A DNA stretch of 64,000 bases from Macrostomum lignano (taxonomy: Eukaryota). The stretch is from NCBI GenBank assembly GCA_002269645.1, contig NIVC01003516.1, forward strand, positions 29,912-93,911, in the 5' to 3' direction. This document shows positions 2,634 through 61,404 of this stretch, piece by piece (the stretch's first letter is position 1; every line of letters starts with the position of its first letter). The notes beneath the pieces were generated by a model, which was given only the letters and a program-made list of their open reading frames with translations, made no database searches and was not told the DNA's origin. The position numbers and the translations under genes are program-made.

Positions 2634-5600
2634 ATGGGCCGGAACAGAAAAAGTGATAGTAAATCTGCGCGCAGCGAAGAGCCAGGTGATAAGGAGCCAG
2701 GCAAGTCACGTGCATCATCATAGTTTGAGCGTTTGCTGGCTTCGTACTTCTTATTGTACCATGACCTTTGTGCCCGCTGGGCACTTATTCTTGTCTTTTA
2801 ATGCCATAGACTACATTTAAGCCCGCTTGCAGGAGTCAAACTTACTTTAATTCAAATTAGCGGGCAGTTAATGACATTTAACGCCCGATTGTCTATTTCA
2901 AACTTACTCTAATGCAAATTAGCGGGCAGTTAATGACATTAACTGCCCGCTAATTTTGTTCCACTTTGTCAAGGACACAAATGTCTATGGCACAATAATA
3001 GTAATACCCATGCTTTGCGGGCGTTAATGGGAAAATCAGAGGGCGCCGTATGGGTATTAATGTACTATTCTTTCAGTCTTTGGTCAGTCGCCTCAGACTT
3101 AATATTTTGCCATTGCTCTTGAAATTTGTCATTTCTTCATTCAAACTTTTCAGAGCCCTACCAGCCCACCGGCAATTTTCAAACGGATTTTGCCGAACTG
3201 TGCAAAGAGGCCGAGATCTGCCGGCCGCCAGCGGTGGTGCTGAGAGCCAAGCGGCCCACCTCGCCAGATAAGGTGAGTCATCAAGCCGCGCAAACTTGTT
3301 AGGAAATGTAGGAAATGTACTGGTTTTGTCAGCCTAACTGAGAATAAAGCCATCCAAAGTGAGAATCCTGCCTACGCTGACTGCGAAGGGCCTGGCTGCG
3401 TGCAGCCTTAGTCTATGGGCCATAGACAATAAAGGACAAGCAAAGTGATAAAAAGCCATCCAATGTGAGAATCCTGCCTAACGGCGCCCTCTGATTTTCC
3501 CATTAACGCCCTTAAAGCATGGGTATTAATGTACTATTAAAAGTTTCTATTCAGACAATCCAGCGCTCTAACAGCTTTATAGGCTTAGCGCTTGAAGTCA
3601 ATACAGCGCAGCCTGTCAATAAAATACGGCTTTGAACTTGATTTTGTACCCAAAATTCTGTAAAAAACTGGGCTAATCAAATCCCCCCGACTGCAATGCC
3701 TTAGGCTTAGACTTTTAGCTACTCTAGAGGGTCCCTTGGTCAGTTGGATAAACAGCTCCCGCAGTCTTATCTAGTTTCTGATCGAATGGCAGTATTTTTA
3801 TGACACTGGCTGCTGTCGAAGAGAATGACTGTCAACTTGATTGGCTTAATAACAATGCTTCTCATTGATGCGTTTAAGAATGTGTAGAACGGTAAAAGAC
3901 GAGCCAATCGTACAAATCATTCAGATCGAGCACGCCCAGGTGCCAGCCGGCAAGAAGGGCAAGGAGGACAAGAAGGCCGCCCAGCAGCAGCAGCAGATGG
4001 TCGAGCCTGAGGAGGAGTCGCCTGAAGAGAAAGGTAAGAAGTGGCGCAGTGCGATGATCTGCTCAGAGCCTTTTGTTTAATCTTTTAGCAAAACTTTAAA
4101 GCTATTTAAGCATAGGACTGCTGGACTTTTCTTAAAACATATCCATAGTCAGCTGGTGTCACCTGTTGAAGGTGCCGACGGTGTCTCGATGACGACTGAA
4201 TGCTTCAGAGACTAGCTGAGGATGTCCTGCAATTAAGGTTTGCTCTTTTGAGGTTTGATCAGAAAAACTTGAGAAATTCGTAATAGGGTGTCTGAAGCAC
4301 CTGGTGCCACGTGTTGAAGGTTCACAAGCTGCGCCAAGCTGAAGGCCAGTGACCAAGAAAGTCAGAGCTGCTGCAGACACATGTGTTCGATGTGCTGATG
4401 AACTTTGTAGGCTTGGCAAGGCGGCACTGAGGCGCAGTGCTGACTGGCGCCCAGGGGGGTGTATTGAATGCACTTGCGCTTTTGGGAAAAATCCTCGACG
4501 GCGACTTGATTCTGATTTTCAGAAGGTGCACAACAAAAATTAAGTCCATGTTCTTAAGTTGCTCCGTTACTCCTTCTCCATGGTAGTTCTACTGTCAATA
4601 CGATGAGTTGTAGTCGGAGGTAAAACGGTCGCGTTAATTTACCTTGGAAATCTGTTGAAGCAAGTATCAGTTCATTTCTTACCCGCGAGTTCGCCACCTG
4701 GTTCCCAGACTCTGTCTTGTCCGATGAAGAGCGGAGACTCGCACTTGACGACTGGGGTAAAAGCTATTACATGTACATCGCATTTTGGCGATTGAGACCT
4801 TGATTAGTTTTTTAAACCCAAACGTTTCCTAAACTGTTGGTAGAGCTTGTGAAAGTTAAAACTGACAATTTTACTAAAACAACCGCGTGTAATATTCATG
4901 GACAACTGGAGTACAAGGACGCTACTATGTTTATTGAGAGCATCCTTATACTTTAGCTTCCATGGTCATGAGCGATTCAATTAACAAAAATCGTGTATTA
5001 CTCGTATAGTTTCATCTGCAAACCCCTTCATTATTCGTACTAACCAAGTTTCCTAGAATCGCAAGTCTCCTGTGGTAAAATATGATTGAAAATCAGGATT
5101 TATTTAGCAATAATTAACTATGGTATTTGCCATTAACTTACTCCCTGTGCAGCCGTGATGGAGCTACTCGGATTCAAGCCGAAGACATTTTCCGTGAAAA
5201 GCCACCTGGAGCTGATGAAGCCGTGCATTCAGGTTGAGATGGACCACCCGGACAGGCAGGACAGCGTCACGGAGGTCTTCATCAAAGATTGGAAACTGCA
5301 GGCGCCGATGCTGCTGACGCTGGGCCGCTGCTTTGAGAAGCTTCAGAAGCTGCACAGCATAAAGTAAGCACGCGGATCAAATTTGTTCATGCGGATACCC
5401 AGTGCCAATGACTACTAAGGACCCCCAGATCCGTTGATTTTGGGAGGGGGGTGGGTGTCAACCCACCCCGCCTCTCATTGGCTGGCGCTCGGCGCGCGCG
5501 CCGCAGGCGCGTGGCGCCAAGCGCCATCCAGGCGCGCCAATCAGGCGCGCCAATCAGGCGCCCATGCCGCAGGCGGCCCTACCGACATGTACACCCTCCC

Positions 5601-8600
5601 CAGCCGCAGGCAACCCTCCCCAGCCGCAGGCGACCCTACCGACATGTATGCCGCAGGCGCACCCTCCCGATATGTACCCCGATATGCCCACCCTCCCGAT
5701 ATGTACCCCGATATGTTTGCCCTCCCTCCAGAGCAGCAGGCGCCCATGCCGCAGGCGCCCCACTCTCTCAAGCCGCAGGCACCCCGAGTGTACACTCTCC
5801 CGAGCCGCAGGCACCCGAGTGTACACTCTCCCATGCCGCAGGCACCCCGAGTGTACACTCTCCTCAGTACACTCTCCCGATATGTAGTCAATGATATTAG
5901 GCTAGTGAAAACTACTTATAGTAGGTGAAATTGAGTATATTTACATAAAAAGTATAAAAAACATATTGGTAGGTGTGAATAATGATGCATAATGCATCAT
6001 ATTAAAATGTACATATTGGAGCATAATAGGAATATGAGCAGCAAAAAACACACAACGTAGGCGCATATTATTGATATATTGACAGAAAAGCAGGTGAAAT
6101 AGACAAAATAATACAAAGCGGGTACTGTAAGCGCTAATAAAACATAGGTGGAAATACACACAAGTATAATAATACAGGAAAATTACATAGCATATAATGT
6201 AGGCAGATTTTAAACATTACATTTTGCATATTAACCCGCAGGCACAAATTTCAATGCATAGGCTAAAACACACACACTGGAAGTTAAGTATAATACAACA
6301 TATGCATGCAAAATTAAGCATATAGGTGCAAAGTAAAATATCCGGCTTCCTAGTAAAGAGACACGCCCCCCGCATTCCTCCCCAGGGCCGGGGGATCCCA
6401 ATGTACAGTGCGGGCGGAGTAACATAGAGAAATTCAATTCCTCCCCAGGGCCGGGGGGATCCTTAGCGGAGTACAGTGCGGGCAGAGAGGAGTAACAGAG
6501 ACCGCCCCAATGTACAGTGGAGGTAGCAGACCGCATACAAAGAGAATTCTCCCCAGGGGGGCTTCCAAATAGGTTTTATTATCTCAAGTGCCGCGCAGAC
6601 AGGGGAATCTCAGTCAGGGGAGACTGTTTAAGGCCTTATCACTCCCGAAAGCCATACGGGCGGCTGCCAGACCCATACACTCGCTTAGTCATGACGCGCT
6701 GGAATGTCTTATCCATCTCCAGGGTCCGAATTGTACAGCTGGCCTTGTCGCGCCTGAACTGTGCCTGGGGCAGCCGTACAGTCCCGCCGTGGCGCAGAAT
6801 CTCCTGCAGCTCCGCCTCCCGCTCGGCAATCTCGGGCGTGACTCGGATGCCCTTGCACTTGAGCACCGAGTACAGCGACCCGTCGGGCTTCTCCACCACA
6901 TAGCGATAGAGCTTGGGGCCTCCCGTGGTGAACTGTACCATGCGGCAGCCGGCAGGTACCTCGTCAGTCCACTGCCCCAAACTCGAACCGCTGGGAGGCT
7001 CGTACTGGCCTGGAGAGCACCGGTATACGACCCTGGGGAGGAGGAGAATAAAGTGTTTAGGGGAGCGAAGCAGACAGACAGACAGTGTGAAAAACTTACG
7101 AATCAGTATCGGCGTAAATCACGCGGGTTCCTAGACCCTCAAGAGCCTCGTACAAGCGCAGACGGGCATGGGAGGTGGTGAAAACTCCAATAGGTACATT
7201 GGCGTACTTGAATGCCCGCTCGCCAGCAACACCAATTCGGGGCTTGTATTCAAGCATCATGAAGCACTCTCCTATTGGCTCGCACGACTTGACTTTGATG
7301 GACGGGTCTGTCAGGCGCTGCAGCCACGCCTCGTAACTGTCCACAATCTCTGTGGAGGTCAAGTCATCCCGCTGGCAGAATTTGCCCAGAGCCTGCAGGG
7401 AAAAAAGATTTAGTATTACTACTGTAAGTAGAAAAACACGGTCCACCACTGTACAAACCCAGACTTACGAGTTTAGAAAAATCTTGGCCACAAAGCGCAG
7501 GCCAGGATTTTCTTCGACCTTTTCCAGCCGGACGCCTTCGCGCTCGAAAAAGCTCGCCATGTAGGCAGTCTTTGCGTCCTCAGTCATCCCCGGCGAACCG
7601 CTAGACTCGGCCTTGAGCTTCAAAAAGGTGTTTACATAATCTGCAAACAGCCCGGTCCGAGTCTCGGTCCAATAGGCCAGGGCATGAACTGACTGCAGCT
7701 TGTATCCCAACTGCAGGGCCTTGTGGAGCTCTGGGGTCGCCCATGTACCGCGGAGCATTCTCTCAGCGTCAGTGTGTGTACACTCGCTGCTGCACTGGGT
7801 CTCCATGCAGACGCGGCAGAGGCCGAAAACCAGCTTCTTGCTAATCTTGGCGGGCAGTAGCGGGATGTGGAGATTGGTCGGCGGCAGAATCGACACCTCG
7901 GCGATACCAAAATACCGGGCCAGCTGCAGCTCATCCAGTAGATGAGGCTCGGGGTGGTGAACCGGGTGCCCGACAGGGTACTTGTCAAACTTGTTGACAG
8001 TCGGGTAGAGCGACACCTAGAGAAAAGTAGTAGGCTAAACTCAAACGCATGTTAACTGTGTGTGTGTGTGTGTGTGTGCGCGCGCATGTGTGTGTGTGTG
8101 TGTGTGTGTAAGAGAAATTTTGAAAAAACTTACCGCATCCCGATAGCGCAGCTCCACAGTCTCGGTGGCCTCGGCGTGCGGGACAAAAGCCTCGGTGCGG
8201 CCGCCAAACAGGGCTTCCTCCAGGCGAATAGGCTGCTGGACTGGCGCTCCCTCGCCCTGATAGTCGTGCTCCCACAGAACACGTACATTGTAGGCAGTGG
8301 AGAGCAGCCGAGTGAAGCGCTCAGTCTCCTCATAAATCGCCCGCATTGGCTGGTTCTTGAGCGGGTGCAGCACGTCGCCGTTGGGGAAGCACTTGGGACA
8401 GCCATGGTAGAAACAGCCATGAAACTGCAGCACAGTCCTACTCTCCGGTCGAAACCGTCCACCTTACGGCCCATGGCGAAAGCCTCGCCGCCAGAGTCGG
8501 CTGTCCGCAACCGGCCGCCAAACTCGGTTGCATTCAAATGTGCAAGCCAGCACCGCGCCTTGTGCGACTGCACATCTGATCGGCGGGAAATCACCCCAAG

Positions 8601-11600
8601 AGTGTTGGGCTCCATAAACTTGGTGGTGAATACAGCCATGGCCAAGCCCGCAATGGTGTTGGATTGGACAAATGCGTCCAGTCCGCAAATGTCCTTAATC
8701 AGGCGGGTGTACTTTAGACAGCCTTCCCGCAAAATTAGCGTGTCCTGCAGGCAATAGTCCAGGTACTCCTTATTGAAATTAAACACTCGGCCCTCCTGCT
8801 TGGCCAGCCAGTCAGCGATGGAGTCGTGCTGCTTATTCTTCTTCCCGCCGTACATATCAATTGAGCAGTAGGGACCTACGTAGCCCCAGTTTTGTGGCTG
8901 ATTGAACACGTGCGGGAAATCTCCTTTGGTCAGTTGGGTGCCCAAACCAAGCGCCTTTGGGAATTGCGCCAGACCAATAGGGATAAAGTTGAGGCTGTCC
9001 TTGAACGTGATCTTGTCGCACTTCATGTACATTAGGCGGCTGTTCTGGAAGATCACCTGCGGCTTCTTCTTGGCCAGTCCGTTGAGTAGGGCGCCGAGCA
9101 GGAGGAATGCGTCATACGCAGAGCCATTGTGCGCAATTGCAATTGCCCCCTGCTTGAACACACTAGTCAGCCAGCAGTAAAAGGCATCGATAGAGTGCGG
9201 CCCGACAGATACAAACTCTCGCATCCCACAGGCACAGTCATTTTGCGAGACACAGCTCGTAAAATCGCGCGCCAAATCGCGTCCCGCAATGCAATTGGCT
9301 GAGCTGTGCAACCCCCCGCACGCGCCGCAGCGGGGCCTGGGGAAGAGTTTGGGACACGCCTCGCAGGAGGTGGCAGCCGTAACCAAGTGTACCCGGTGCT
9401 GCTTGCCAGAGTCCACGTACGTCTCGAAATCATAGTAAACATACGGGGCGCTAGACTCTTTGGCTTTGGGCGGGGTGACAAAGCACTCGTGGGTGGCAGT
9501 TTCGTCGTACTGCTTGCAGACTGGACACTTGGCGTAACCACACTGATGCTCGGGGGCGTGGCCTACTTTCAGTTCTTCTAGATAGCCACACGTGCCGCAA
9601 ACGTGGACTGAATCACAGCGAGATCTGCCCGCCTTATTCTTGCGCTTGTGATTCTCTAGGCACTGAGCATTATAGCAATTTAGACCGCAATCCTGGCATC
9701 TTACATATGCACGGTTGACCTTGCAGTTTGAGCCCGGAGTCTTGCAGGTGCTACAGGCGTCGGCGCACTTGTGCTTGGCGTTGCCGCAATCGTAGGCCAT
9801 CTCGCACTTGGCGCAGTAGTGGTGGCTGCCGAAAAACGCTGACAGCTTGGTGACCACATTGAAGTGCTGCTCAACCAGGTGCAGGTGCAGAATCTCAGTG
9901 CCAGGCAGGTTGAATATGCACGTGTTGGCCTCCTCTGCCCTGTACACTCGTACACCAAAATCGTGGCCTGGATACAGACGGTTCAGGGCCCGGACCGCCT
10001 CGGGCAGAACATCCACCCCAAAAGGACCGGCCTGCGAGACGATTTGATGAGTCTGTGTGGAGGCAAAATATTTATTTTAGTAATCCTTATCGTAAAATTT
10101 CTTATCAGAAGATATATCTTTTAGTATTCCATGATACTGAGTAAAAATTATATCTTTTAGTATTCCATGATAGTGAAATTCTTATCAGGAAAATCAGTTC
10201 ACAACTCACGGTGTAGAGTCCAGCCTCAATTTGCAGCTCAGTTGCCAGCTTAGTCTGCTTGGGCGAATTGGCTCTGATTGTACGCCACACCTGCTCGGTG
10301 ATGCGCTTGGCCACAAATTGCAGGTAGGCGCAGGCCACGACCAGAGCTCGCAGCAGGCATCTCTTGTCCGTGTTGGTGATGCGGACATAGTGCTTGGAGA
10401 AGGCATGCCGCTCCTCTAGATGTTTGTTCTCGAGAGCACATCCACCTCGAGGCACCCAGGCCTTTAGCAGACGGATAGAAAAGTTGCTCGACAGTACGCT
10501 TGCGTCTGACTGCACAATCTTGTCAATGTGCTTAAACAACAACTCTGCTGTCATGCGGGCTGCACGCACCGGAGGAGTGTGGGCTGCTTTGAGCATATTA
10601 TCACTCTCGAATTTAGCCGCCATAAAGTCATCACCAGCCAAATCCTGCTTGAAAACTTCGAGCATGCTGGCAAATGTCTCGCGTAAATCTTCGGTGTCAT
10701 CTAGCTTTACCACATACTCAACACCCTTTGCCCTAAACTTGGGCAGGTCGCGCTGATTATCCAGCCGGGCCGTAAAACCTGTAGGGGGAATGAAGGGGGA
10801 GTGTGAGTCAGCCCGGATCTGCCTGGGGAATAGGGGGGTTGGATAACTCACCCGGTCCGGTAACAGATTCAGGTTGGGCAGGCGGGACAAACGCGTCTGA
10901 AAAAACACAAGGAGATAAAAAACCAGAAGAATCTGTCAATTCGTGGCACCCCAGGATCAGACTCCAACCGACTCATTGTTCACGCTCCCCCCTTGCGCTC
11001 AGGCCCTCTCACCGACACGCTCTGCAATTTTTTTAACCCCAGCCCGCAGCTGTTATCCAGCCCGGCCCGGCTCATTGTTAGCGCTACCTCTCGCACGCAT
11101 GCCCCCCTGCCGAGACGAATCTGCAATTTTTTAACCCTAGCCGCATCCGGCCTGGCTCATTGTTTGCGCTACCCCTCCCGCACAAGCCCTGCTGCTGAAA
11201 CGCTCTGCAATTTTTTTAACCCCAGCCGCATCCCGCCTGGCTCTTTGTTTGCGCTACCCCTCGCACGCATGCCCTGCTGCTGAAACGCTCTGCAATTTTT
11301 TTAACCCCAGCCCGCATCCTGCCTGGTTCTTTGTTTTCGCCCCCTCTCTACTCAAACTCGCATGCCCTGTCGCAGCACTCTGAATTTCCGCATGCTCCTG
11401 CAGCTGTCAGAGCGCCCACCACTTTTTATCTGGCCTGGCTCTTTGTTTGCGCTCACGCATAACCCCTCGCACGCAAGCCCTCCTGTTGAAATGCTCTGCA
11501 ATTTTTTTAACCCTAGCCGCATCCGGCCTGCTCTTTGTTTGCGCCCCCTCCCTACTCAAACTCGTAAGCTCCCTGTCGCAGCACTCTGAATTCTATAGCC

Positions 11601-14600
11601 CGCATGCGCCTGAAGCTGTCACAGCGGAAAACCCCTCAACTCTTTGTTAGCCCCCGCCTGTCTAGTCTGCTCTTATCAACTCTCTATCGCGCCCCTCTTG
11701 CTCCTGCCCCTGCCAATTCATAGAAGCTCCCTGCTGCAGCAACTCAAAACCCGTCTAGACTGATATACAACCGGATAGAAATTAATTAAAACTTACCATA
11801 AAGACGTTGCCTCTTGTCAGCCAGGAAAGTGGTCGATGCTGCGCTGCGTTTAGCCATTTTGCATACAGAGAGAAGGATTATCTCTCTACCCCTGTTCTAG
11901 GGTTCCGAATATATACTAAAAACCTGCTTAGCTCGTCTATTATTGGCCAAATCACCAAAAAACCAACCAGAATCACTCAAAATCACCCCCAAAATCACAC
12001 CCTCCCACCCTCCATCTGGGGTATATAAAGCGCTGCGCGGCTGTCGGAGAGCTCTCTGCTGCTGCTGCTAATCATGTCTTCTTCTATCGCTCTATACGAA
12101 AACTTTGTGGCGCGGAAGCCCACATTTGAAACGGAGCATGACTTAATTGAAATCCGTCGGCTCTACACCGACGAAGCTGGAGTGTGGAAGGACGGCTTCC
12201 CAGCAATCTATTTAAGCGAGGTCGAGTGGAAGAAGCTCGAAGCTGCACGCCCTGACCTGGAGGCTGCGGCACGTCTTCACGTGGACAAGAGAGTCGTGTT
12301 GGGCAGCTTCAAGGCAGCAGAAGCTTCACAGGGGAGGATTCGTTTGCGGCGCAATTGGCTTAATCGGGATCCAAAGTTCAATTGGCGCTACACAATTGAA
12401 TTCACGCCGGAACTGTGGCGCCGGATGTTTGCCGCCCGTTTGGGCAAGCTCTTCAAACCCAAGGCCCCGCCGCCAGCCAAACGAGCCAGGACCGAGACCT
12501 CTCCGGTAGCCAGGACTGAGGAGGAGGAAGAAAATCTCCAGGTTGCGGGTCTCAAACCCTACCAATCCCCGCCCTGGGAAAATCTGTTTGACGAGAGTCA
12601 GCGCTGGTAGTTCCCTATTGGCTCGCGCCACCCCGCGGGGCTTCCTATATAACTAATCTATCCAGCCTCTAGAGAGCCAAACCCTAATCCTAGCCCTGAT
12701 ACTATAGTCTGCTGATTCCAACATGTCCCGCCGCCGAGCTCTATCCACCCTCTGGGATAAAAACCGCCCATCTGAAGAATTAGCCTTCCTCGACGGTGAA
12801 ATACCCGAACATATAATCCCCATAGGCATAGAAAACGGCGGACTTGACTATCCTGAAAATTGGGGTGCTGATATAGCCTTATCTTGGGCTTTGTGGGCTA
12901 TTACCTACGATAGCGACCCGGGGTCTGAGATTTTCGACATCCCGTGGGGTAATAGCTTCGATAGCGACACCGGGTCTGAGATTTTCGACCTCCCACCGCT
13001 GACTATCGGAGGGGGTGTGAACGCCGCCGCTGCCGACTCTGGTGCCTCTGCCGATGCCGACTCTGCCACCTCTGCCGCCGATGCCGACTCTGCCGCTGCC
13101 GACCCTGGTGTCTCAGCCTCTGCCGCCCCTGCCACCTCTGCCGACTCTGGTGTCTCTGCCTCTGCCACCTCTGCCGCCGATGCCGACTCTGCCGCTGCCG
13201 ACTCTGGTGTCTCTGCCTCTGCCGCCTCCAGCCAAGCCTCGATATCATCAGCCACCACGATCCTTCTCTTTGGTGATGAGGAAATGAATATGGCCGAGGA
13301 GATCGCCATGGTCCGCGATCGCTTTCGGCGTATTGTGGCCTCCTTTTTTCACCGTGATATCGAGTGGTTGAGGTCTCGCCACCCCGACGGCCTGCCTCCC
13401 CAAGACACCTTTGTCGAGGCCTTTAATCGGGTTCTCGATACTTTGGTGTCGAGGGGGGGCTGACCTACGGGAGGTGTTGGAGGCAGAGACACTACATCAA
13501 GATTGGTTGATGGGGCGCAATTCGCATGCCTCCGACACTGAGGCATATCTGGCCGGTCCGGGAGCGCGCCCTACTGAGTGGGATGCACCTATGGTAAGAT
13601 ATTACACTGTATACACAATTCGTCTTATCATATACAAAGCATATATTCTTTCTACATTAATTGTTTTAATTTCCCCATTGCAGTCGGCCGACTACTGATT
13701 CGAGACCCTTGAGGAGGAGGCGGCATGAAACAACACTGAGGAGCGGCTGGAGGTTGACTGGGGTTTGCGGTTTTTTCTCCCTGTACGTGGTTTAGGGAAA
13801 CCCCACAGTATACACTGAGTATATTGAGGGGGGGGGGTTAAAAGACTAATTCAGGGAGAAAATTGTCTCCCTTACAGTCTCCCCTGACCGAGATTCCCCT
13901 GTCTGCGCCGCACTTGGGATAATAAAACCTATTTGGAAGCTCCCCTGGGGAGAATTCTCTTTGTATGCGGTCTGCTACCTCCACTGTACATTGGGGCGGT
14001 CTCTGTTACTCCTCTCTGCCTGCACTGTACTCCGCTAAGGATCCCCCGGCCCTGGGGAGGAATTGAATTTCTCTATGTTACCCCGCCCGCACTGTACATT
14101 GGGATCCCCCGGCCCTGGCTCTGGGGGCGTGTCTCGAATATCCTGGGCTGGATATTTGACTTTGCACCTACATTATATGCTTAATTTTGCATGCATATGT
14201 TGTATTATACTTAACTTCCAGTGTGTGTATTTTATCCTATGCATTGAAATTTGTGCCTGCGGGTTAACATGCAAAATGTAATGTTTAAAATCTGCCTACA
14301 TTATATGCTATGTAATTTTCCTGTATTATTATACTTGTGTGTATTTCCACCTATGTTTTATTAGCGCTTACAGTACCCGCTTTGTATTATTTTGTCTATT
14401 TCACCTGCTTTTCTGTCAATATATCAATAATATGCGCCTACGTTGTGTGTTTTTTGCTGCTCATATTCCTATTATGCTCCAATATGTACATTTTAATATG
14501 ATGCATTATGCATCATTATTCACACCTACCAATATGTTTTTTATACTTTTTATGTAAATATACTCAATTTCACCTACTATAAGTAGTTTTCACTAGCCTA

Positions 14601-17600
14601 ATATCATTGACTACATATCGGGAGAGTGTACTGAGGAGAGTGTACACTCAGGGTGCCTGCGGCATGGGAGAGTGTACACTCGGGTGCCTGCGGCTCGGGA
14701 GAGTGTACACTCGGGGTGCCTGCGGCTTGAGAGAGTGGGGCGCCTGCGGCATGGGCGCCTGCTGCTCTGGAGGGAGGGCAAACATATCGGGGTACATATC
14801 GGGAGGGTGGGCATATCGGGGTACATATCGGGAGGGTGCGCCTGCGGCATACATGTCGGTAGGGTCGCCTGCGGCTGGGGAGGGTTGCCTGCGGCTGGGG
14901 AGGGTGTACATGTCGGTAGGGCCGCCTGCGGCTGGCGCCTGGTCGGCGCTCAGCGCCTGGACGGCGCTTGGCGGGCCGCCTGCGGCTGGCGCCCGGTGGG
15001 CGCTCGGCGCCTGGACGGCGCTTGGCGCCACGCGCCGACCAATGAGAGGTGAGGAGGGTTGACACCCACCCCACCTCCAAAAACGCCCGGATCTGCCGGC
15101 CCTTAGTAGTCCAATGCAAAGCCAAAATGCGTATTTAGCTGAGGGTGTCTGGGGTCCTCACAGGTTTTGAGAAAGATGCATGTACTTCCCATGTACATCA
15201 GCAAGGAAGCTTCCAGGCGCGTCGCCACGGGGGGGCAGGGGGAGATGTCCCCCCAGTAAAAGCTCTGGGGGGGACATGCCAATGCTTTGTCCCCCCCCAC
15301 CCCACCTTGTGAGTCTTGGTAATCAATAACTTTTCTTCAGGGCGCCAAAATATAGCGCCATTGCTGCCAAAATGAGTGCATGTGGTGCTAAAATGAGTGC
15401 CTGCAGCGCTAAAATGAGTGCCTGGAGCGCTAAAATGAGTGCCTGGAGCGCTAAAATGAGTGCCTGCAGCGCTAAAATGAGTGCCTGGAGCGCTAAAATG
15501 AGTGCCTGCAGCGCTAAAATGAGTGCCTGGAGCGCTAAAATGAGTGCCTGCAGCGCTAAAATGAGTGCCTGGAGCGCTAAAATGAGTGCCTGTGGCGCTA
15601 AAATGAGTGCCTGCGGCGCCAAAATGAGTGCCTGGAGCGCTAAAATGAGTGCCTGCGGCGCTAAAATGAGTGCCTGCGGCGCTAAAATGAGTGCCCGTGG
15701 CGCCAAAATGAGTGCCTGCGGCGCTAAAATGAGTGCCTGCAGCGCTAAAATCAGTGCCTGGAGCGCTAAAATGAGTGCCTGCGGCGCCAAAATGAGTGCC
15801 TGGAGCGCTAAAATGAGTGCCTGCGGCGCTAAAATGAGTGCCTGCGGCGCCAAAATGAGTGCCTGGAGCGCTAAAATGAGTGCCTGCGGCGCTAAAATGA
15901 GTGCCTGCGGCGCTAAAATGAGTGCCCGTGGCGCCAAAATGAGTGCCTGCGGCGCTAAAATGAGTGCCTGCGGCGCCAAAATGAGTGCCTGCGAAGCTAA
16001 AATGAGTGCTTGCGGCGCTAAAATGAGTGCCTGCAGCGCTAAAATGAGTGCCTGGAGCGCTAAAATGAGTGCCTGCAGCGCTAAAATGAGTGCCTGGAGC
16101 GCTAAAATGAGTGCCTGTGGCGCTAAAATGAGTGCCTGCGGCGCCAAAATGAGTGCCTGGAGCGCTAAAATGAGTGCCTGCAGCGCTAAAATGAGTGCCT
16201 GGAGCGCTAAAATGAGTGCCCGTGGCGCCAAAATGAGTGCCTGCGGCGCTAAAATGAGTGCCTGCGGCGCCAAAATGAGTGCCTGCGAAGCTAAAATGAG
16301 TGCTTGCGGCGCTAAAATGAGTGCCTGCAGCGCTAAAATGAGTGCCTGGAGCGCTAAAATGAGTGCCTGGAGCGCTAAAATGAGTGCCTGCAGCGCTAAA
16401 ATGAGTGCCTGGAGCGCTAAAATGAGTGCCTGCAGCGCTAAAATGAGTGCCTGGAGCGCTAAAATGAGTGCCTGCAGCGCTAAAATGAGTGCCTGGAGCG
16501 CTAAAATGAGTGCCTGTGGCGCTAAAATGAGTGCCTGCGGCGCCAAAATGAGTGCCTGGAGCGCTAAAATGAGTGCCTGCAGCGCTAAAATGAGTGCCTG
16601 CGGCGCTAAAATGAGTGCCCGTGGCGCCAAAATGAGTGCCTGCGGCGCTAAAATGAGTGCCTGCAGCGCTAAAATCAGTGCCTGGAGCGCTAAAATGAGT
16701 GCCTGTGGCGCTAAAATGAGTGCCTGTGGCGCTAAAATGAGTGCCTGCAGCGCTAAAATGAGTGCCTGGAGCGCTAAAATGAGTGCCCGTGGCGCCAAAA
16801 TGAGTGCCTGCGGCGCTAAAATGAGTGCCTGCGGCGCCAAAATGAGTGCCTGCGAAGCTAAAATGAGTGCTTGCGGCGCTAAAATGAGTGCCTGCAGCGC
16901 TAAAATGAGTGCCTGGAGCGCTAAAATGAGTGCCTGCAGCGCTAAAATGAGTGCCTGGAGCGCTAAAATGAGTGCCTGTGGCGCTAAAATGAGTGCCTGC
17001 GGCGCCAAAATGAGTGCCTGGAGCGCTAAAATGAGTGCCTGCAGCGCTAAAATGAGTGCCTGGAGCGCTAAAATGAGTGCCCGTGGCGCCAAAATGAGTG
17101 CCTGCGGCGCTAAAATGAGTGCCTGCGGCGCCAAAATGAGTGCCTGCGAAGCTAAAATGAGTGCTTGCGGCGCTAAAATGAGTGCCTGCGGCGCCAAAAT
17201 GAGTGCCTGCGAAGCTAAAATGAGTGCCAAAATTTAGTCATGTACATGGTGAATTCGTGGCTTTGTCCCCCCCCCCACCATAAAATCCATGGAGACGCCC
17301 CTGCTTTAATCGACCTGTGAAGGCAACTTACTTTCCAAGCTCCCTTGACCATCATCAGCCTTTGGCGAGTGGCGGCCGATGCCAGCATTGTTGACACCCT
17401 GGCTAAGCTATTGGGACGCTTGCCAGCCCTGCGCTCTCTGTCTCTGGAGTCAAACGGACCCGTGGCAGATGAAGAAGTCTACGCGGAGCTGATTCGAGTT
17501 GAGAGCAAGTAAGTGCCTGCCAGTTTCCCAAGCAACATACAAGTCTCTACTTTCTCTGTAAGACAGTGTTAACCAACCGCCAATATTCCAACCGCCACAA

Positions 17601-32621: not shown

Positions 32622-35260
32622 ATGTACCGCCGGAATTTCCCAAACGATCCGGGCTTTGCCGACAGCATTGCTGTCGCCGCCAGGCAGCAGCAGATGCAGC
32701 AGAGCCTGGGCTCGAATCGAACTCGTGGCGTCCGTCTTGTCCGTTACTTCGTTGTCGCAGCGCTGCTCCTCTCTGGCTGCTGTCTGGCCTACTGGAATGA
32801 AGCTCGCGCCGTGGCCCGCGACCGAATCCTCTACGAAGGCCTGGAACGAGTGACGTCACTGCCAGCTGCTGAGTACCACTCTACTGGCAACGAGGGTCGC
32901 CTAGTGCACGTTTCGGGTCAGCTGACCGTGTCTGGCTGGTGCCTGGACCCAGAGTTCCGCGTTCGCCTGCGGGCTTATCGAATGCAACGCACCGTTGAGA
33001 TGTACCAGTGGCGCGAGGAGCTTGAGCACAGCGAGGTGAGGCAATATCGGAGGCTGGAGGAGGTCGGGATGCTATGGTCACAGGTATGAATGAGATCGCA
33101 AGATCCCGGTTTTTCGTGATCCCGGGTTTAAAGGCTCGTAAAATATAAGTCACATTTTTTCAATGTCACACTTTATCAATGTCACACTTTATCAATGTCA
33201 CACTATATCAATGTCACACTTTATTAATGTCACACTTTATTAATGTCACACTTTATCAATGTCACACTTTATCCAAATTTCACACTTTATCAATGTCACA
33301 CTTTATCAATGTCACAATTTATCAATGTCACACTATATCAATGTCACACTTTATTAATGTCACACTTTATTAATGTCACACTTTATCAATGTCACACTTT
33401 ATCCAAATTTCACACTTTATCAATGTCACACTTTATCAATGTCACAATTTATCAATGTCACACTATATCAATGTCACACTTTATTAATGTCACACTTTAT
33501 TAATGTCACACTTTATCAATGTCACAATTTATCAATGTCACACTATATCAATGTCACACTTTATTAATGTCACACTTTATTAATGTCACACTTTATCAAT
33601 GTCACACTTTATCCAAATTTCACACTTTATCAATGTCACACTTTATCAATGTCACACATTATCAATGTCACACTTTATCCAGTCACACTTTATCAATGTC
33701 ACACTTTATCCAAGTCACACTTTATCAATGCCACACTTTATCAATGCCACACTTTATCCAGTCACAGTTTCTCCCCTTGTCTCTACTTTATCAGTTGTGT
33801 CAAATCAGTGCTTATTGCTAATTAGTTATCTGATCCCACTTACACTGGATCTCAGGTGACGCAGCCCGATGGCAGCTCTCGCACAGAATCTGTGCCGGTG
33901 TACAGAACCGACTGGCTGCCCTACCTGGTGGACAGTCGGCAGTTCCAGGAGCAGCGGCAGCACCAGAATCCGCGCTCTCTGCCGCACGCGAGCATAAATT
34001 TCACTGCCGATGCGGCCAGCCTTGGCGCATTCGAACTGGCGCCAGTGTTCCTGGATCAGCTGACTGCCGACACTGCGCTGAAGAATCCGCCAAGCAGTGA
34101 GGTGTGTCAAATGTCTGCCTTGTGTACCTATCTAAACTGCTCACCTGTCTGCCTGAACTACTCATCTACCTGTCTAAACTGCTCACCTGTCTGCCGAAAC
34201 TACTCATCTACCTGCCGAAACTACTCATCTACCTGTCTAAACTACTCATCTACCTGTCGAAACTACTCATCTACCGTCTGAACTGCTCATCTACCTGTCT
34301 AAACTACTCATCTACCTGCCGAAACTACTCATCTACCTATCTAAACTACTCATCTACCTGTCTGAACTACTCATCTACCTGTCTAAACTACTCATCTACC
34401 TGTCTAAACTACTCATCTACCTGTCTGAACTGCTCATCTACCTGTCTAAACCACTCATCTACCTGTCTAAACTACTGATCTACCTGTCTAAACTACTCAT
34501 CTACCTGTCTGAACTGCTCATCTACCTGTCTAAACTACTCATCTACCTGCCTAAACTACTCATCTACCTGCCTAAACTACTCATCTACCTGTCTGAACTG
34601 CTCATCTATCTGTCGAAACTACTGCACCTGCACTTATCCCCTACCCCGCAGGTGCCCCTAGAAGAGCTGTCCAAGCGCGGCTACCAGTGGCTGGACGGTC
34701 ACCTGTACGCAGCCGGCTCCGACCCCAGGCGGCCGCAGGTTAGCGATGCGCGAATTCGCTGGAGCTACGGCGGCCTCGCTGGCGAGGCGGTCACCATCGT
34801 TGGCCGTCAGTCGGGCTCCAGCCTGGCAGCTTTCCCTGTGCCGGACGGCGAGATCGACTCCATAGCTCTGCTGGCCAGGGGCTATCAATCCCCTAGGCGA
34901 ATGTTCGCCTGGCAGCTGGCCAAGAGCCGGCTGCATCTCTGGCTGCTCAGGGCCGCCGCCTGGCTGCTCATGCTCATCGCCTGCTTTGTGCCCGGCTCTC
35001 GCGGCGTAGAAATTCTTCTGTGGCGGCTGGCCCCGCCGCTGCGGCCGCTGCTGGCTCTGCCGCCTGTCACTCTTTATGTGTGCCTGTCCGGCTGCCTGTC
35101 GCTGGCAGTCACCGGTGTGGCTTGGCTGCGTCACCGGCCCGTCATGGGCCTGACGCTGATGCTGGTCTGCGCGGCGCCGCCTGCGCTGGCCCGCCTGCGG
35201 CCGGCCGCCATTGCCGCCGCTGCCAGGCTGCGGAGCAGGACGACCGCGGCGCCGATTTGA
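32622..35260 (+). CDS. TMEM43: TMEM43/LUMA-family membrane protein, exons 32622-33035, 33856-34101, 34652-35260 (422 aa)
   Basis: YWNEARAV, NEGRLVHVSGQL, DPEFRV, RTVEMYQWRE, HQNP, PQVSDARIRW, VTIVGRQ and C-terminal hydrophobic helices. Phase-0 GT-AG junctions. Confidence 0.8.
33162..33765. repeat. 16-bp minisatellite TCAATGTCACACTTTA in TMEM43 intron 1
   Basis: Read directly. Confidence 0.95.
34127..34625. repeat. 21-bp minisatellite CTGTCTAAACTACTCATCTAC filling TMEM43 intron 2
   Basis: Read directly. Confidence 0.95.
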
Positions 35261-36998: not shown

Positions 36999-56628
<19,630 letters not shown>

Positions 56629-60455: not shown

Positions 60456-61214
60456 TGGCAGTGATGAAAAATTCCGGTGTGTGCTTTTTAGTTTTGATTG
60501 TTAGGATAATTTGATACGAATTTTCTTGGACAAGAGTTGGGGCAGAGTGTGGGGCAGAGTTTGGGGCAGAGTTTGGGGCAGAGTTTGGGGCAGAGTTTGG
60601 GGCAGAGTTTGGGGCAGAGTTTGGGGCAGAGTTTGGGGCAGAGTTTGGAGCAGAGGACGGTGTCGGACAGGGACACTCGCCTGCAGGCTGGGCTCGTACT
60701 CGCCGACCGGTTCAACCGGACCATCCAGAAGCCACCGGAGCACCGCCGCGGCAGCTGGGTGCGCACCGACGGTGTCGACTGATAGACGCTGATGACGTTG
60801 TCGCCGCCGCAGCGCTGGCTGGTGTCGCCGTGCACCGCCTGCTGCACTGGTCCACAGCGAGCCGGCCTCAGCCAGCCGCATGCCGTCCATGGAGATGCCG
60901 CAGGAGCACTCGGTGCTCTTCAGGGCGGCAAACAGAAGGCCTTTGGTCAGGCAGAACTGGGCGCAGCGCTCCGGAGTGACCTGGCCGGTCATGCTGTGCC
61001 GGTAGTACGGCATCAGGTCGTAGTTGTCGCCCACCTGGCGCTCCGCTTTGTTCAGCACGTAGTCCGGATTGGTGAGAAAGTAGCAGCCCAGGTAGCGGAT
61101 GGAGAGGTCGGATGAACGCGCGAACAGGGAGGACGCAGTAGCGGGGAGACAGGCCGCCAGAGCAAGGCTTACAAGGGCCAGCAGACAGCTCGTTTGCGCT
61201 CGAATATTCTTCAT
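59919..61214 (-). CDS. Secreted WSC-domain protein with a probable PAN/apple-like domain and hydrophobic C-terminus; frameshifted in this assembly
   Basis: Signal peptide, RYLGCY...ERCAQFC...FAAL...CSCG, then in shifted frames DQCSRRC and GDTSQRCGGDNVISVY. The downstream exon (~60388-59919) has SLRLCMWKCESLPTCWSV...GCVLL and ends AALMAAIVVWLFLAGQ. The gene model is incomplete. Confidence 0.6.
60538..60648. repeat. 12-bp repeat GGGGCAGAGTTT
   Basis: Read directly, about 9 copies. Confidence 0.9.
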
Positions 61215-61404
61215 GCTCGACTATCTCTGCTGGGCAAAAACTCAACAAATCCTGAAAGCTCGAAATTTGCTGTTTTTCTCAGCCCCGCCCGCGGATAACT
61301 TCGGCTGAAGTCCGGGCTCGCCGATTTCGATTGACCAATCAGAGACCGGCTTGATGCTATTGGCTGTGGCGACTGACTGGGTGGCTTTATTCTGGTGAGG
61401 TGTT

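Follow-up and report, generated by a model that had tools for sequence, protein, structure and literature searches.

The window, a stretch of 64,000 nucleotides from Macrostomum lignano contig NIVC01003516.1, carries an element with long terminal inverted repeats, a spliced pPolB polymerase gene on the minus strand and two ORFs on the plus strand. Its features are as follows:

5411..15110, whole element, likely replication segment ('A', family 1), 9,700 bp, target duplication CCAATG (6 bp)
5411..6627, left terminal inverted repeat, about 1.2 kb
6639..11857, minus strand, pPolB gene (PF03175), seven exons, about 1,280 aa by exon lengths
7033..7099, minus strand, intron C in motif C, Ser codon, 67 nt, phase 2, TC|G
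7393..7468, minus strand, intron B in motif B, Ser codon, 76 nt, phase 2, TC|G
8017..8133, minus strand, intron A in motif A, 117 nt, phase 0
10053..10209, minus strand, intron, 157 nt, phase 0, joints in X2, X3 and X13
10779..10851, minus strand, intron, 73 nt, phase 1, joints in 6/6 runs guessed to be RNA
10897..11796, minus strand, probable first intron, 900 nt, phase 1, fits the frame, variable repeat-rich interior
12074..12610, plus strand, PC4-like protein, predicted single-stranded DNA-binding (sequence and structure comparison)
12723..13700, plus strand, ORF2, acidic, Ala/Ser-rich, no function assigned, missing in some copies
13874..15110, right terminal inverted repeat

The termini read 5'-ACTACTAAGG...CCTTAGTAGT-3' (pattern 5'-ACTAC...GTAGT-3'), and the inverted repeats match at 99% between 5566-6324 and 14174-14932 and at 95% between 6444-6627 and 13874-14057. 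End positions about 11-27 differ between the two ends of one element (for example, window 5411-5440 versus 15081-15110). A probable host exon (window 5140-5370) stops ~45 nt short of the left end, and the insertion may therefore lie within a host intron. The right end is adjoined by a 21-nt tandem array (window 15219-17237), and host ORFs further along match TMEM43 (34241-35260), leucine-rich-repeat (42720-43253) and WSC domain (60501-61220) sequences.

Two single exons of the polymerase match Pfam family PF03175, identity to Polinton-type relatives is 43-48%, and the closest named proteins are Macrostomum lignano UniRef models (96% and about 70%). The gene also has stretches that, by eye, we take to be OTU-like, exonuclease and VSR-like; the VSR-like stretch, as read by eye, corresponds to no Pfam family. 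The initial annotation had placed spliceosomal introns in all three catalytic motifs, and their positions are borne out by the sequence, by 30/30 copies and by spliced contigs. Introns A, B and C each have a GTAAGT donor, a pyrimidine tract and an AG acceptor, and exon lengths give phases of 1, 1, 0, 0, 2 and 2 for the six introns of the gene. Elsewhere the intron list needed revision: an intron given as 10032-10209 is in fact 10053-10209, with its acceptor placed by RNA joints 21 nt upstream of the one claimed; 10897-11796 stands on its fit to the frame, and 10779-10851 had been overlooked. No joint among those listed falls at 10897-11796, though contig depth inside it is low. The CA microsatellite reported in intron A is present in the window but not conserved, intron A being 65-128 nt in other copies. 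The window copy has frame breaks near 8450 and near 7385, with lengths matched by 1/29 and 2/29 other copies, respectively, and LWGKF is consequently out of frame after intron B in this copy.

Transcript data consist of contigs from 8 of 23 listed runs, in which 'RNA' is a program's guess and no run is recorded as RNA. Among the runs guessed to be RNA, which come from five studies, joints were detected at intron A in 5/6, at B in 6/6 and at C in 3/6, several of them with short sides of 18-27 nt, and two contigs, X6 (1,335 nt) and X13 (1,780 nt), cross all three junctions. Two runs of unknown kind look like DNA on the basis of deep coverage of intron interiors, and joints at introns A, B and C were found in 0/2 of them. 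Splicing removes introns A, B and C from the polymerase transcript, and they are ordinary spliceosomal introns, combining the GT-AG borders, consensus donor and pyrimidine tract of the U2 type with removal from contigs whose RNA status is guessed. The junction-spanning check proposed with the annotation thus returned spliced contigs at all three motif introns in runs of five studies, and these support its suggestion of nuclear, spliceosome-dependent expression.

The same annotation suggested that splicing gates active polymerase in the manner of P elements, retention of the motif introns in some tissues keeping the enzyme off. Any of the three introns, if retained, would destroy a catalytic motif, and unspliced contigs are present in the RNA-guess runs at a depth of about 10; this is as shallow as the interior of intron 1 and consistent with DNA or pre-mRNA, contig depth being a poor measure of expression and contigs carrying no tissue or level information. 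The deep contigs, in whole-sample runs of five studies, are spliced, and the donors are strong consensus sites. Unspliced exons were said to read into a stop soon after each donor, which holds immediately after B and C, where TC+GTAA puts TAA in frame as a product of phase 2 and consensus, but after donor A only at codon 31 (30 codons later). In 4/6 copies of sister family 2 (described below), intron A, 81 nt long, keeps the frame and contains no stop. With the stops a by-product and motif positions not needed for gating, we find no support for a regulatory gate and regard it as improbable.

A DNA search of the animal's own genome (764 Mb) returned at least 42 matches from 40 of 277 candidates scored. 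Introns A, B and C are all present in the 30 loci examined, among which there is no intronless copy of this polymerase family, and all three are bounded by GT..AG in 29/29 non-window copies. Across 28 copies, the number of indels per 100 nt is 3.1-6.0 in introns and 0.01-0.35 in exons, and that of substitutions per site is 0.09-0.13 and 0.04-0.09, respectively; exon pN/pS is 0.07-0.12. The pPolB exons are under purifying selection and the introns are drifting. Frame-changing indels occur in the stretch checked in 15/29 other copies and are absent from it in 14/29 (stops not counted). The family 2 polymerase has about 70% protein identity to that of family 1 and introns at the same codons. Since they are common to all copies and to two diverged families, the intron sites are old and have replicated with the element. 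A distant pPolB relative of the same class as that of the window, L051 (G000:C234:55707-59999), is AT-rich, decayed and intronless.

Beside the polymerase, the element encodes the PC4-like protein, which shares 29% identity with the PC4 ORF that a canonical Polinton of the same genome carries, matches human PC4 in Foldseek (E 0.007, probability 1.00) and is an Atlas lead (score 0.86), and ORF2, which has a GT-AG intron of 90 nt (13594-13683) close to its end. No match to integrase, capsid, ATPase or protease was found in the window or inside family-1 copies (17/20 stretches searched), the single integrase match in these stretches (24%) lying 6 kb outside an element. A hidden spliced integrase was ruled out, the two plus-strand ORFs being the PC4-like gene and ORF2, with no integrase match. 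The element therefore shares pPolB, inverted repeats and a target duplication with Polintons and lacks their integrase, their capsid, ATPase and protease, and their 5'-AG...CT-3' end motif; alone it does not belong to the Polintons. The initial annotation overlooked both the absence of integrase and capsid and the complementary partner described next. Ten other family-1 copies were compared: both ends with matching 6-bp flanks are present in 5/10 (9.0-10.1 kb), 3/10 have a repeat at each side but not both of the end words, and 2/10 are rearranged.

A search with the end pattern revealed elements that share the first ~31 nt and have different contents. This partner type is a separate element of ~10 kb with 5'-ACTAC ends that encodes integrase and capsid without polymerase. 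The partners on C2210 and C1711 encode Fic, three unknown ORFs, an rve integrase and minor-capsid-like, major capsid, protease-like and ATPase-like proteins, and neither matches pPolB. The minor-capsid-like label is suggested by the position of the ORF, and the protease-like and ATPase-like calls have weaker sequence evidence than the capsid. In the structural model (pLDDT 91.6), the partner major capsid is a double jelly-roll fold, matching PBCV-1 Vp54 (E 1.7e-18) and the mavirus capsid (E 2.7e-15). Integrase and capsid with no pPolB match characterize 7/7 partner elements examined, 6/7 of which have matching 6-bp flanks. The Fic-domain gene (L110:5420-6283) occurs in family-1 partners and was not detected in family-2 partners. 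Capsid proteins P0082-P0084 of public assemblies are about 80% identical to the partner capsid, so this capsid lineage exists in other samples.

The pairing of polymerase and partner elements occurs twice. In family 2, the polymerase element ends in ACTACGTATCGTGCAG, and 14 elements with family-2 ends comprise 3 of polymerase type, 5 of integrase-and-capsid type and 6 empty ones; the family-2 partner capsid is 88% identical to that of family 1. Within the first 30 nt, polymerase (A) and partner (B) ends match at 22-28/30 positions for A1 versus B1 and 23-24 for A2 versus B2, against 10-16 across families. Past about nt 31, family-1 polymerase ends are closer to family-2 partner ends than to family-1 partner ends. 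The variants at end positions about 11-27 are found on polymerase-type and partner elements alike, as though the two types had exchanged ends. We also note a dUTPase in a family-2 polymerase element (C1263; L139:4175-4633), and a dUTPase and a deoxynucleoside kinase beside another pPolB class (C2285; L090:2439-3260 and L089:6950-7546).

Empty palindromic derivatives account for 6/14 elements with family-2 ends and 3/6 with family-1 ends. Seven such elements (G000 contigs C356, C125, C816, C1588, C3158, C251 and C1197; L128, L129, L136, L135, L137, L113 and L114) are 3-8 kb, largely palindromic and without polymerase or capsid, and have the same ends; the flanks of C356 and C1588 are inverted, not direct. 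These are probably defective, helper-dependent derivatives, and their frequency among elements with such ends indicates that the ends alone suffice for mobilization. No third coding segment with the same ends was found, the empty elements being palindromes or retrotransposon inserts with no conserved gene.

Canonical Polintons of the same genome (6 elements) are 16-17.5 kb with AGTAGT...ACTACT ends. Their polymerases are long single frames of a different class from the window pPolB, whose exons gave a tblastn match at 0/12 canonical loci, and their integrase and capsid are only about 36% and 30% identical to those of the partner. In the capsid tree, the two partner capsids form one clade (100/98) separate from canonical Polintons. 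Canonical Polintons as direct parents are thus ruled out by polymerase class, ends and capsid tree. One canonical Polinton stretch, L086 (G000:C506:482000-491999), contains 0 GGNCC sites where about 11 are expected.

Complementary gene sets lie here on separate molecules with matching ends, as expected of a multipartite virus, and together the two elements would work like a Polinton. Because integrase and capsid lie on a separate element with matching ends, the two are likely halves of one split virus genome, and the polymerase gene with its spliced motif introns is likely carried by the replication half, free of integrase and capsid, of a two-part Polinton. Gene content and ends suggest that the segments complement each other. 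Host RNA polymerase II and the spliceosome would make pPolB mRNA constitutively in expressing cells; starting at the shared ACTAC ends, pPolB and the PC4-like protein would replicate the two segments as excised linear molecules, in keeping with the terminal-protein priming at end repeats described for Polintons in the consulted parts of PMC8097293 and PMC11161782; the partner's integrase would insert both segments, its capsid proteins could package either, and empty derivatives would parasitize the pair.

The two types might instead be independent non-autonomous derivatives or satellites, each leaning on canonical Polintons or a lost ancestor. Canonical Polintons with integrase are abundant in the genome, the empty derivatives are mobilized by their ends alone, and three family-1 copies adjoin canonical Polinton genes: one is joined to or beside them on C271 (276939-287800; seen directly), and those on C4072 near 14540 and C2932 near 66727 are placed there from coordinates only. 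Against this, the gene sets are complementary in two diverged families, the ends match within each pair and differ from the AGTAGT ends of canonical elements, purifying selection acts on the polymerase, and many of the integrase frames in partners have kept their full length. Nor was an unsplit copy found, with 0/96 polymerase matches (all 134 candidates scored) less than 25 kb from any of 62 capsid matches (138 of 338 candidates scored), the nearest being 47 kb away. We consider independent satellites unlikely and prefer the two-part Polinton.

The position of the introns in catalytic motifs is a separate question. If six introns fell uniformly, the chance of hitting each of A, B and C would be about 2e-5, and for a looser version with any three motif positions P is 0.003-0.025, both values being post hoc. 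Distant relatives were surveyed at 83 loci, the best 80 of 512 metagenomic matches plus 3 viral contigs, a set in which intronless genes are over-represented. Uninterrupted motifs are present in 77-80 of the 83, and three loci, representing two distinct elements, bear introns: L257/L268 has one intron, in motif B (L268 being a whole Polinton with integrase, capsid and ATPase), and L234 has one each in the VSR-like motif, motif B and the GPKNY motif, so that all 4 introns in these two relatives fall in conserved motifs. Mapping intron positions across related elements, as the initial annotation proposed, therefore showed that motif B introns recur 5 and 6 nt from the window site in two unrelated metagenomic Polintons, and the clustering looks non-random on that account. 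Viral contigs gave 8 pattern matches for a motif C intron like that of the window, 0/8 of them in a pPolB. A quick tree separates the three intron-bearing lineages and so favours independent origins of motif introns, but a single origin is not rejected (AU p 0.083).

Our tentative first choice is that the motif introns persist since an invariant motif tolerates no excision but an exact one and a DNA-to-DNA cycle offers few routes of exact loss; three introns outside motifs and none in the exonuclease motifs speak against this survivor view. Ranked after it is the possible but doubtful idea of a shield: the conserved DNA at motifs A, B and C would be a target for nucleases of rival Polintons, an intron would split that target, and splicing would restore the protein. 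The recurrence in motif B and the confinement of the relatives' introns to conserved motifs fit a shield, as does the background that spliceosomal introns have no preference for conserved sites, unlike homing-linked inteins and group I introns (PMC2814812, as far as consulted), and that homing endonucleases are present in polinton-like viruses and in the neighbourhood of replicases (available portions of PMC12220804 and bioRxiv 10.64898/2026.10.13.758929). No nuclease with such a target was identified, the compatibility of the tree with one origin weakens the case, and only 2 distinct intron-bearing relatives occur among the 83 loci of the biased set. GGNCC sites in the window polymerase (17 seen, 18.9 expected) are not depleted, which speaks against a link to a GGNCC-cutting system. 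Chance or sequence context (G|G-type sites in Gly/Val/Trp-rich motifs) with no selective meaning ranks below shielding and is rather unlikely. The numbers are small, the motifs were picked after the fact and the base after each motif intron is G, yet such contexts are frequent along the gene and independent-looking introns recur in motif B. The regulatory gate comes last. Somewhat doubtful in its full form is a live bipartite animal dsDNA polintovirus whose replication segment is spliced and whose integration-and-virion segment is intronless, the two integrating separately and sharing origins after a split that predates the divergence of families 1 and 2, in which the motif introns would be repeatedly gained anti-nuclease shields.

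Both the definition of Polintons and searches for them have assumed a single intronless element in which the polymerase lies beside an integrase, and family 1 breaks both assumptions. A eukaryote-wide survey, in the part of the report consulted, accepted a locus when it had a tblastn match of 650 aa or more, an ORF of 900 aa or more and a nearby integrase (bioRxiv 10.1101/2023.08.22.554363). Family-1 open frames reach 895 aa among those listed and have no linked integrase, so the family would have been missed by that filter. The earlier suggestion that introns hide the gene and lead to under-reporting holds to this extent, but the gene can still be found, through Pfam matches of single exons and through spliced UniRef models. 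In the open full-text papers searched, no description was found of a bipartite Polinton, of a Polinton polymerase that is spliced or of Macrostomum elements of this kind; the word 'intron' is absent from the accessible text of PMC11131425, and a term search of that of PMC10159356 gave no match. A split into replication and integration-and-capsid elements, if true, would be natural genome segmentation among double jelly-roll DNA viruses. It would also make concrete the proposal that replication and morphogenesis modules are independent, in an animal that serves as a laboratory model and allows observation. Motif-clustered spliceosomal introns run counter to the reported lack of preference, and they make intron persistence in viral genes testable across many elements.

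Among known systems, the closest are Polintons/Mavericks (adintoviruses, Eupolintoviridae), which share pPolB, long inverted repeats, the 6-bp target duplication and a trinucleotide end repeat with the window element and, when both elements are summed, also integrase, major and minor capsid, ATPase-like and protease-like genes. They differ in that the genes here lie on two separately integrated elements and six introns interrupt the polymerase. Vertebrate Mavericks, when intact, are single elements free of introns and have 5'-(AGT)2//(ACT)2-3' ends, against 5'-(ACT)2//(AGT)2-3' here, and one fish has an (AC)3A end type (PMC8097293, in the sections seen). The pPolB2 of marine nematode and mollusc Polintons likewise has a VSR-like stretch upstream of motif A, but is encoded by long single ORFs linked to integrase according to the portion of bioRxiv 10.1101/2023.08.22.554363 available, whereas the window pPolB is spliced and unlinked. 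Bidnaviruses combine a Polinton-derived pPolB with two segments that have matching termini (PMC8502044, in part); they are ssDNA viruses with an unrelated capsid (PMC11161782, in part), whereas both parts here are dsDNA and integrating, with a predicted double jelly-roll capsid. Introner-invaded eupolintoviral elements of dinoflagellates also have spliceosomal introns in Polinton-like elements, most of them acquired once the element had integrated and derived from introner families that are active (PMC12166617, as excerpted), in contrast to the old introns shared here by all copies and two families. Transpovirons and the proposed mobile replication modules of Polisuviricotina similarly keep a replication module apart from morphogenesis, but the latter consistently pair pPolB with a DDE integrase (bioRxiv 10.64898/2026.10.13.758929, in the text available), whereas here the integrase travels with the capsid, in a polymerase-less partner that has matching ends.
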